The notes under the pieces were generated by a model. It saw only the letters and a list, made by a program, of their open reading frames with translations. It was not told the DNA's origin and did no database searches. Shown piece by piece: positions 42,706 to 44,230 of a stretch of DNA of 48,822 nt. The translations under genes and the position numbers were made by a program. Position 1 is the stretch's first letter; the number at the start of each line of letters is the position of its first letter. Origin of the DNA: a virus; the UHGV virus genome UHGV-0098481; one strand, written 5' to 3'.

Positions 42706-43413
42706 ATGGATTTGAATAAATTCGATGAGCCATTCAGCCCTGAAGATATCGAATGGCGAATACAGCAAAGCGGTAAAACACGCGATGGCAAAGTGTGGGC
42801 TATGGTGCTGGCTTATGTCACGAACCGGGCAATCATGAAACGCCTGGACGATGTTTGCGGCAAAGCAGGATGGCGCAATGAATACCGCGATATTCCCAAC
42901 AACGGCGGAGTTGAATGCGGCATATCAATCAAGATTGATTCCGAATGGGTAACCAAATGGGATGCTGCTGAAAACACGCAGGTAGAAGCCGTCAAAGGTG
43001 GTCGTTCCGGTGCAATGAAGCGCGCTGCCGTTCAGTGGGGAATCGGTCGGTATCTGTATAACCTTGAGGAAGGTTTCGCACAAACATCTCTCGATAAAAA
43101 GCAGGGATGGCACAGGGCAAAACTGAAAGATGGAACAGGATTTTACTGGTCCCCTCCATCGCTGCCGGGATGGGCAATGCCAGCATCTGGCAATCAACCA
43201 TCACCAGAAAATACCAACCAGAAATCTCCATCGGTTGACTGCGAACAAATCCTGAAAGACTTCAGCGATTATGCATCGACAGAAACTGACAAGAAAAAAC
43301 TCATAGAACGTTATCAGCATGACTGGCAATTAATGGCTGGCAATGAGGATGCGCAGGCTAAATGCGTTCAGGTAATGAACATCAGAGTTAACGAACTAAA
43401 ACAGGCGGCATAA
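42706..43413 (+). CDS. erf: Single-strand annealing recombinase, Erf/Rad52-like
   Basis: 235 aa; C-terminal ...ILKDFSDYASTETDKKKLIERYQHDWQL...CVQVMNIRVNELKQ matches P22 Erf C-terminal domain; N-terminal part carries GIGRYLY. Confidence 0.8.
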   Translation: MDLNKFDEPFSPEDIEWRIQQSGKTRDGKVWAMVLAYVTNRAIMKRLDDVCGKAGWRNEYRDIPNNGGVECGISIKIDSEWVTKWDAAENTQVEAVKGGRSGAMKRAAVQWGIGRYLYNLEEGFAQTSLDKKQGWHRAKLKDGTGFYWSPPSLPGWAMPASGNQPSPENTNQKSPSVDCEQILKDFSDYASTETDKKKLIERYQHDWQLMAGNEDAQAKCVQVMNIRVNELKQAA

Positions 43414-43920
43414 ATGGCAAGCAGAGGCGTAAATAAGGTGATTATCCTTGGTCGGGTAGGACAAGACCCGGAAGTTCGATACTCACCATCAGGTACAGCG
43501 TTCGCTAACCTGACAATAGCCACTTCAGAACAATGGCGAGATAAAAATACTGGCGAGCAAAAGGAATTGACTGAATGGCATCGTGTTGCTGTATCCGGGA
43601 AACTGGCTGAGGTCGTGGGGAAGTATGTGAAAAAAGGTGATCAGATTTATTTCGAGGGAATGCTGAGAACCAGAAAGTGGAAAGACCAGTCAGGGCAAGA
43701 CCGTTACACAACCGAGGTTCATGTCGGAATTAATGGCGTGATGCAAATGCTTGGCGGAATTGGCGACAGCAAACAACAAGCAGCCAGCAGGCAATCACAG
43801 AAGCCACAGCAGCAATCATCACCAGCACAACACAACGAACCACCGATGAATTTTGACGACGATATACCCTTTGCACCAGTAACTCTCCCCTTCCCTCGTC
43901 ACGCTATTCACGCAATTTAA
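43414..43920 (+). CDS. ssb: Single-stranded DNA-binding protein SSB with C-terminal extension
   Basis: OB-fold N-terminus ([18 protein letters not shown]...), Gln/Pro-rich linker, canonical ...NFDDDIPF followed by 15 extra residues ([15 protein letters not shown]). Confidence 0.85.
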
Positions 43921-43933
43921 TCAGGAGAAAATC

Positions 43934-44230
43934 ATGCCAGCGCCTCTGTATGGTGCGGATGACGCGCGCCGCTGTTCCGGCAATTCCGTATCGGAGGTGC
44001 TGGATAAATTCAGAAAAAACTACGATCGGATAATGTCGCTACCGCAGGAAACGAAAGAGGAAAAGGAATTTCGCCATTGTATATGGCTTGCAGAGAAAGA
44101 AGAACGCGAGCGAATTTACCAGACATCAATCCGACCATTCCGCAAAGCCACATATACCCACTTCCCTGAATATATCGACCCGCGCCTGCGTAATTACCGC
44201 TCACGCTATGGCGCTATCAGTAATGACTGA
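43934..44230 (+). CDS. Hypothetical early protein
   Basis: 98-aa ORF with AGGAG upstream. Confidence 0.5.
   Translation: MPAPLYGADDARRCSGNSVSEVLDKFRKNYDRIMSLPQETKEEKEFRHCIWLAEKEERERIYQTSIRPFRKATYTHFPEYIDPRLRNYRSRYGAISND

Follow-up and report, generated by a model that had tools for sequence, protein, structure and literature searches.

More than a dozen genome-maintenance proteins dock on the free C-terminal ...DDDIPF end of bacterial SSB. An acidic C-terminal tail ending in an aromatic residue is also the interaction hub of T7 gp2.5 and T4 gp32, two non-homologous ssDNA-binding proteins of phages. Partners of SSB hold the tip with a hydrophobic pocket around its last Phe, an ionic contact to the carboxylate of this residue and a basic rim for the Asp residues; for E. 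coli SSB, it is a basic residue of the partner pockets that contacts the free carboxylate (PMC5872125). Among SSBs encoded by phages, that of HK620 has an extreme C-terminus that controls partner recruitment (PMC5928155). A 2025 survey of lambdoid phages defined the HK75-type class of recombination modules, treated an adjacent HNH gene as a probable module member and stated that SSB-1 proteins had not been studied experimentally (PMC12315714); a term search of its text returned no mention of a C-terminal extension of SSB-1.

Here, we analysed an SSB gene carried by the virus genome UHGV-0098481 (48,822 nucleotides; this whole stretch of DNA is referred to below as the window), in which the acidic tip is not the end of the protein. 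The best explanation overall, to which we give a probability of roughly 0.5, is that the residues beyond the tip form a conserved phage-borne post-tip module that would cap or re-specify the SSB tip.

The SSB gene and its recombination module

The SSB gene lies on the + strand at 43414..43920 and encodes a protein of 168 aa, from an ATG start to a TAA stop at 43918-43920. The OB-fold DNA-binding domain (residues 6-104; 43429..43725, +) was matched by Pfam SSB (PF00436, E=2.4e-36) and its beta-barrel was given a pLDDT of 85-90 in the AlphaFold monomer model. It is followed by a Gln/Pro-rich linker (residues ~117-142; 43762..43839, +), predicted to be disordered (pLDDT <50 for residues 117-149), and then by a canonical acidic tip (residues 143-153; 43840..43872, +), i.e. 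the disordered linker and D-D-D-I-P-F motif of bacterial-type SSBs. The TIGR00621 ssb profile scores 164.6 bits (cut-off 53.95) and covers residues 4-153 up to its own last position (165/165), its end coinciding exactly with F153. The post-tip extension, i.e. residues 154-168 (43873..43917, +), a conserved and portable C-terminal module, falls outside this family model. Both the ORF translation and the end of the profile confirm the 15 residues reported after the tip in the initial annotation.

With 15 residues beyond F153, the tip Phe is not C-terminal and its carboxylate is not free. The protein fits the bacterial-type family in each tested respect bar this one defining feature. All the PDB matches to the SSB terminate at IPF, no solved structure with the extension was found among PDB chains, and AlphaFold gave no confident placement of the extension by intramolecular docking on the OB fold (pLDDT ~50). 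A read-through of 15 codons is not significant by itself, since the chance of 15 sense codons past a given codon is about (61/64)^15 = 0.49; the non-random part is the conservation of these codons elsewhere.

The gene belongs to the early-left operon of a prophage of the lambdoid type, with mEp043, HK97 and HK75 as relatives. Directly upstream is the gene of a Rad52-like single-strand annealing protein of 235 aa (42706..43413, +; Pfam Rad52_Rad22 on residues 4-136, E=5e-26), whose stop runs into the SSB start (TAAATG). The last member of the module is the Abc2 anti-RecBCD gene (43934..44230, +; Pfam Anti-RecBCD_p2, E=4e-61). Annealing protein, SSB and anti-RecBCD genes are contiguous within 42706-44230, with gaps of at most 13 nt and without a nuclease, which is the organisation of the HK75-type module, where the SSB is named SSB-1. 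The ORF represents an intact phage SSB within the Rad52-like annealase / SSB / Abc2 module of an HK97/mEp043-like lambdoid prophage.

Two further observations were made on modules of this kind. The annealase has a C-terminal domain (~56 aa) that shares 38 % identity with the C-terminus of an Erf protein (E=8e-10). This domain, shared by Rad52-like and Erf-type annealases (43240-43410 in the window; contigs L287, L288 and L290), ends in ..KCV.V...R..ELKQAA, lies outside both Pfam core domains and is present whatever the tail state of the SSB; it may be a shuffled partner-binding domain. No significant similarity was detected by BLAST between this Rad52/Erf C-terminal domain and the C-terminus of Sak4. 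A second nuclease gene, of mobile appearance (HNH_3 in Pfam, 155 aa), was also seen between the Rad52-like annealase and the extended SSB in 17 viral contigs among L088-L281.

Conservation, distribution and selection

The initial annotation had considered the loss of a stop codon, a sequencing error or a deliberate variant, and had proposed a comparison with related prophages. The extension was found to be kept in mEp235, mEpX2, HK75, epsilon34, g341c and ECP1. The full SSB gene, extension included, shows 98.6-99.2 % identity to that of the viable phages mEp235, mEpX2 and HK75, 88.6 % to that of the Salmonella phages epsilon34, g341c and NM-3, and ~73 % to that of ECP1 and HZ41; in translation, an identical IPF-APVTL junction is found on four diverged SSB bodies. 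The extension is present in ~111 of the 120 best SSB protein clusters, with conservative variation (e.g. APIGLQFSRHSIHAI, APVGLPYPRHCIYLI and SPVGLQYGKHRVYAL). The clusters bearing it, some of which are large (880 and 1030 members), come from E. coli, Salmonella, Klebsiella, Citrobacter, Enterobacter, Kluyvera, Pluralibacter, Phytobacter and Atlantibacter. In P0079, which represents a Salmonella cluster of 588 members, the extension is three residues short, a natural truncation that could be informative. Among 5426 complete E. coli genomes, matches were found in 412 and were full length in 273.

A control set was drawn from a genome-contig scan that returned mostly host chromosomal ssb genes. 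In this sample of SSB genes from bacterial genomes, mostly chromosomal, 67 out of 71 end at IPF and the four exceptions bear tails of the third class described below. Some SSBs with neither extension nor endonuclease gene are 88-91 % identical to that of the window and adjoin a different Abc2 variant; the SSBs of the close relatives L355 and L356 end at IPF.

That canonical SSB family models and some close relatives end at IPF would be in line with an accident of this genome, i.e. with a sequencing error or the disappearance of a stop codon behind DDDIPF. However, the same 45 nt and the same junction recur in independent phage isolates and in hundreds of genomes, which refutes a sequencing error, and the peptide is conserved with synonymous variation in distant lineages. 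The loss of a stop codon is refuted by the wide conservation of the extension in functional phages and by the purifying selection acting on it, both of which support a deliberate variant. The probability left to an accident is negligible.

The consensus of the extension is [AS]-P-[IV]-[GT]-L-[QP]-[YF]-x-[RK]-H-x-I-[HY]-[AVS]-[IL], always placed directly after ...DDDIPF. A wider form, [AS]P[IV][GT]L[QP][YF] plus 7-9 residues, was found behind the tip of at least five phage SSB-like families that are unrelated in sequence, among them those of large virulent phages and of Vibrio phages. Three classes of extension were distinguished: a first one of 14 residues, APIGLQYPALL(N/M)CM; a second one of 15 residues, AP[IV][GT]L[PQ][YF][PG][RK]H.I[HY][AVS][IL], to which the window belongs; and a third one of 15-16 residues, [IL]G[FH]GYG..[RK].AI[HY]A[IL].

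A 36-position profile of the tip and extension was searched against 1.84 billion representatives. The composite ends proteins of phrog_44, 743 and 7364, which are annotated as SSB, and also proteins of phrog_3284, 4477 and 2544 (250-400 aa), for which the PHROG function label is unknown. The family profiles that reach the C-terminus stop at IPF or earlier and none of them covers the whole extension. When 50,697 phage records were searched by tblastn, the tip was found in 636 and the tip followed by the extension in 156 of these 636, among them 140-kb virulent Vequintavirinae and phages of Vibrio, Serratia, Proteus, Klebsiella and Yersinia. In plasmid records, the extension was covered in 125 of the 620 that matched the tip, mostly on non-mobilisable plasmids. 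Members of the three families of unknown label (P0213, P0219 and P0223, for phrog_3284, 4477 and 2544; L291 601-1872) have 250-420 aa with ends in ..DFDDDIPF, and no Pfam match was obtained on the members scanned. These families, to which ORF199 of the rV5-like phage JES2013 belongs, probably represent ssDNA-binding or hub proteins of phages that have gone unrecognised. This distribution shows that the extension is a conserved phage-borne post-tip module of 14-16 residues, borne by many SSB lineages and by several unrelated SSB-like families.

Selection was assessed on 83 unique extension-bearing genes, which were gathered, as was the codon sample, with patterns fixing some positions; under this sampling, dN/dS came to 0.02 in the tip, 0.13 in the OB fold and 0.17 in the extension, compared with 0.39 in the linker. 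Across 64 SSB clusters sharing <80 % identity, the extension has a length of 14, 15 or 16 residues, and its conserved positions make use of every synonymous codon, i.e. four each for Ala, Pro and Gly and six for Leu. In two unrelated contigs (L284 and L285), APIGLQY is coded with five synonymous differences in seven codons. These data show purifying selection on the extension as a peptide. Synonymous divergence is low in the extension (dS 0.28 vs ~1.0 elsewhere in the gene), most likely as a result of recombination at the module boundary, so part of the conservation may be due to DNA-level constraint or to recombination. Its 45 nt were also seen to be identical between phages whose SSB bodies differ by 20-27 %. 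RNA structure in the tail, including the option that the C/T-rich tail sequesters the ribosome-binding site of abc2, received no support (z=+0.82), and no promoter or terminator signal that could account for the low dS was found in the tail.

An HNH-like gene at the junction of tip and extension

Phages harbour free-standing homing endonuclease genes, e.g. those of the T4 seg/mob type. Alignment of the window with related phages delimited an endonuclease-free insertion site at 43842..43876, an HNH-like gene being present between 43872 and 43873 in Sf6 and Huey and lacking in the window and in mEp235. In Sf6 and Huey, this gene of ~470-480 bp is inserted exactly after the Phe153 codon, ahead of the codon that comes next in the window. 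The SSBs of Huey and Sf6 end canonically (..DDEIPF and ..DDSDIPF, respectively, each followed by a stop) and precede a Cys-rich ORF of 155-159 aa, then abc2. This Cys-rich ORF reads out through the extension, i.e. its last 14 residues are those of the tail, and the Sf6 record notes 14 residues in common with an 'E. coli SSB'. The window, mEp235, Huey and Sf6 share 100 % identity in the tail DNA, though their SSB bodies differ.

Comparison of the window with Huey revealed 4 mismatches in nt 1-428 of the SSB gene and 8, all in third position, in nt 429-456, vs a single mismatch in the 91 nt of the right flank. The patch recoded in Huey is the 28 bp to the left of the insertion (43842-43869), and this region is presumed to be that of cleavage or recognition. 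Such a cluster of mismatches is the pattern expected of a co-conversion tract or of a self-immune target. Endonuclease-bearing alleles often have altered tips (DDSDIPF, DDQDIPF and DDEIPF). As for a homing site, the polymorphism concerns one exact position with near-identical flanks, where the gene is either there or lacking, and clustered substitutions are adjacent to it. On the evidence of these alignments, the boundary between tip and extension is an insertion point of an HNH-like endonuclease gene; the window carries the allele without this gene, which is presumably cleavable.

A homologue annotated as 'endonuclease VII' starts inside the extension, in another frame, in mEp554, JES2013 and the metagenomic contig L284. 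Several other arrangements were encountered. In Klebsiella phage phiKp_30 (L007 1351-1554), an unannotated and decayed HNH-like remnant has kept its start (MKICSRCH) and its end, the middle being replaced. In E. coli ETEC1702 (NZ_CP122929.1; L282 2058-2559), a stretch of 500 bp between ssb and abc2 has no annotated RefSeq feature; this is the position of the HNH-like ORF in Sf6-type modules, and tail-only matches elsewhere (H63) are also labelled 'none'. In P0024, P0053, P0060 and P0063, an N-terminal HNH-like part is joined to a DnaQ-like 3'-5' exonuclease (PF16473), and these proteins look like the products of deletions across the 3' end of the HNH gene, the tail and the start of the next gene.

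An origin of the tail within the HNH protein family, from which the SSB would have gained it by deletion, was rejected on three grounds: the phrog_2340 profile ends at residue 143, short of the tail; most homologues terminate shortly beyond ..KPIY, in unrelated residues; and HNH copies behind other SSBs, including a non-canonical OB-type SSB, are devoid of the tail. The idea that HNH proteins ending in ..AA are inserted at the annealase/SSB junction also proved wrong, P0003 and P0019 being located directly after the SSB as well.

The data on this junction bear on a reading in which the extension has no protein function and is a by-product of the insertion and loss of the endonuclease gene, together with mosaic recombination at the 3' end of SSB, conserved only as module-boundary DNA, as a homing target or as an overlap with the endonuclease start. 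The identity of the tail DNA in four phages with differing SSB bodies, its low dS and the HNH start codons lying inside it in another frame are all consistent with such an origin, as are the viability of tail-less alleles and the finding of the tail behind either an SSB or an HNH gene and ahead of either abc2 or a DnaQ-like exonuclease. On the other hand, the HNH gene is downstream in only 8 of 60 diverse motif-bearing contigs, so the extension is not explained by the endonuclease, and HNH homologues occur at other SSB loci without the tail. The dN/dS of 0.17, a length kept strictly at 14-16 codons, the use of all synonymous codons at conserved positions and a tail free of RNA structure, promoter or terminator signals also run counter to conservation as DNA only. 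We consider that a by-product without protein function is improbable.

Possible functions of the extension and comparison with known systems

The extension turns the tip Phe (F153) into an internal residue. As an internal Phe lacks the carboxylate contact, the extension should weaken or change the canonical docking of host proteins. Its most likely effect would be to cap or re-specify the SSB tip, while presenting a new hydrophobic/basic C-terminus. Recombination and replication intermediates would then be covered by a 'private' phage SSB, either shielded from the host enzymes that bind the tip or steered towards one specific partner, probably a host one. The extension would be advantageous yet not essential, since close relatives exist without it; viable phages such as Sf6 and Huey also have an SSB that ends at IPF, which together with these relatives makes the extension dispensable. 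A search for a phage-encoded neighbour common to all 64 extension-bearing clusters found none. A counterpoint to capping is that, if insulation were the sole aim, loss of the tip would be simpler, and the retention of a perfect tip suggests that it is still in use. The masking of the docking tip suggested in the initial annotation would follow from the structural data on the SSB C-terminus; the dominant-negative action evoked there is speculation.

Retention of the tip is accounted for if the extension is a pro-peptide or a degron, i.e. if it is clipped to expose the canonical tip, which would be kept for use after cleavage, or if it is a proteolysis target that limits a host-interfering SSB in time. 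The ends of the extension loosely resemble C-terminal protease tags (ssrA-like ..LAA and MuA-like ..RRKKAI), and a hydrophobic end is preceded by basic or His residues (..RHAIHAI, ..KHRIYAL and ..ALLNCM). The termini (..HAI, ..YAL, ..YVI and ..NCM) show partial likeness to ..KAI with no consistent match to a protease tag; they vary by class (HAI, YAL and CM) and comply with no known degron consensus. Moreover, conservation extends to all 15 positions, including the N-terminal half AP[IV]GL[QP][YF], and not just to the last 3-5. Proteolytic processing is in our opinion unlikely.

The core of the extension, PVTLPF in the window, was also compared with the beta-clamp-binding motif, whose consensus is QL[SD]LF or QLxLxL. 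The [IV]-[GT]-L-[QP]-[YF] segment conserved across the 64 clusters fits the spacing of this motif (hydrophobic-x-Leu-x-aromatic/Leu). The Gln expected at the first position is absent: position 2 of the extension is never Gln, and is Pro in 32 of 38 fifteen-residue tails and in 21 of 22 fourteen-residue tails. The [IV]xLx[FY] core may thus be said to resemble a clamp-binding motif without its Gln, this being a resemblance only.

Another candidate partner is the cognate phage annealing protein, the extension being a docking peptide recognised by the annealase C-terminal domain. Extended SSBs usually adjoin an annealase (Rad52-like in 118 cases, Erf in 4 and Sak4 in 2), and the Rad52-like and Erf-like partners have a C-terminal domain in common. 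Precedents exist in HK620, whose annealase needs the last six residues of the phage SSB (PMC5928155), and in Red-beta, whose C-terminal domain is reported to interact with E. coli SSB (PMC6393309). However, no co-variation was observed between the annealase C-terminal domain and the tail state: the domain is the same beside SSBs with the extension, without it or followed by the endonuclease gene. The extension is also found in 140-kb virulent phages, on proteins with other neighbours. Docking of the cognate annealase is quite improbable.

We return to a post-tip module that caps or re-specifies the tip. In a more specific version, which we put forward tentatively as a possibility, the extension would be a portable second interaction motif of gamma-proteobacterial phages, placed after a mimic of the host tip so as to make a general hub signal specific. 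It would either shield the tip against nucleases, helicases or SSB-sensing defences of the host, or form with it a two-part ligand for one host factor, and the HNH family would be specialised in homing to tip-coding DNA.

No paper describing or testing the extension was found by motif-string and keyword searches, the subscription-only literature being outside reach; public records have contained the gene, annotated simply as SSB, from the CP-1639 and Sf6 entries onwards. These records hold a large conserved class of phage SSB-like proteins in which a perfect host-type tip is buried under a conserved peptide of 14-16 residues, which points to an uncharacterised mode of interaction. Possible uses include keeping host enzymes off phage recombination intermediates or capturing one particular host factor. 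There is also a bearing on recombineering, where portability is restricted by how annealase and SSB pair via the SSB tail. We regard the observation as both solid and general and the mechanism as directly testable, natural IPF-ending alleles and endonuclease-split alleles providing ready-made controls.

Compared with known systems, the window SSB is like E. coli SSB (SSB-Ct, ...MDFDDDIPF) in its OB fold, its disordered Gln/Pro-rich linker and its identical acidic tip motif, and unlike it in that the tip is not C-terminal and 15 conserved residues lie beyond. It is the same protein as SSB-1 of the lambdoid modules (HK75-type and ES18-type), with the same order of annealase, SSB and Abc2; whereas the adjacent HNH gene was viewed as a probable member of these modules (PMC12315714), the presence/absence data obtained here fit a mobile gene. 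As in HK620 with its SSB and Sak4, a phage SSB adjoins a phage annealase, but the HK620 SSB belongs to another SSB family and has a tip-like NDYPPF end without extension (PMC5928155).

The HNH-like gene is like homing genes of the T4 seg/mob type in its presence/absence polymorphism with near-identical flanks, its clustered substitution tract, its decayed copies (phiKp_30) and its highly conserved target sequence. It differs from them in being placed within the 3' end of a coding sequence, where it supplies the SSB stop and continues in frame into the old SSB tail. Finally, proteins of phrog_3284, 4477 and 2544 resemble T7 gp2.5 and T4 gp32 in having a C-terminal acidic tail, theirs being a host-like tip; in the tails of T7 gp2.5 and T4 gp32 the aromatic residue is the last one, while here it is followed by a second conserved peptide.
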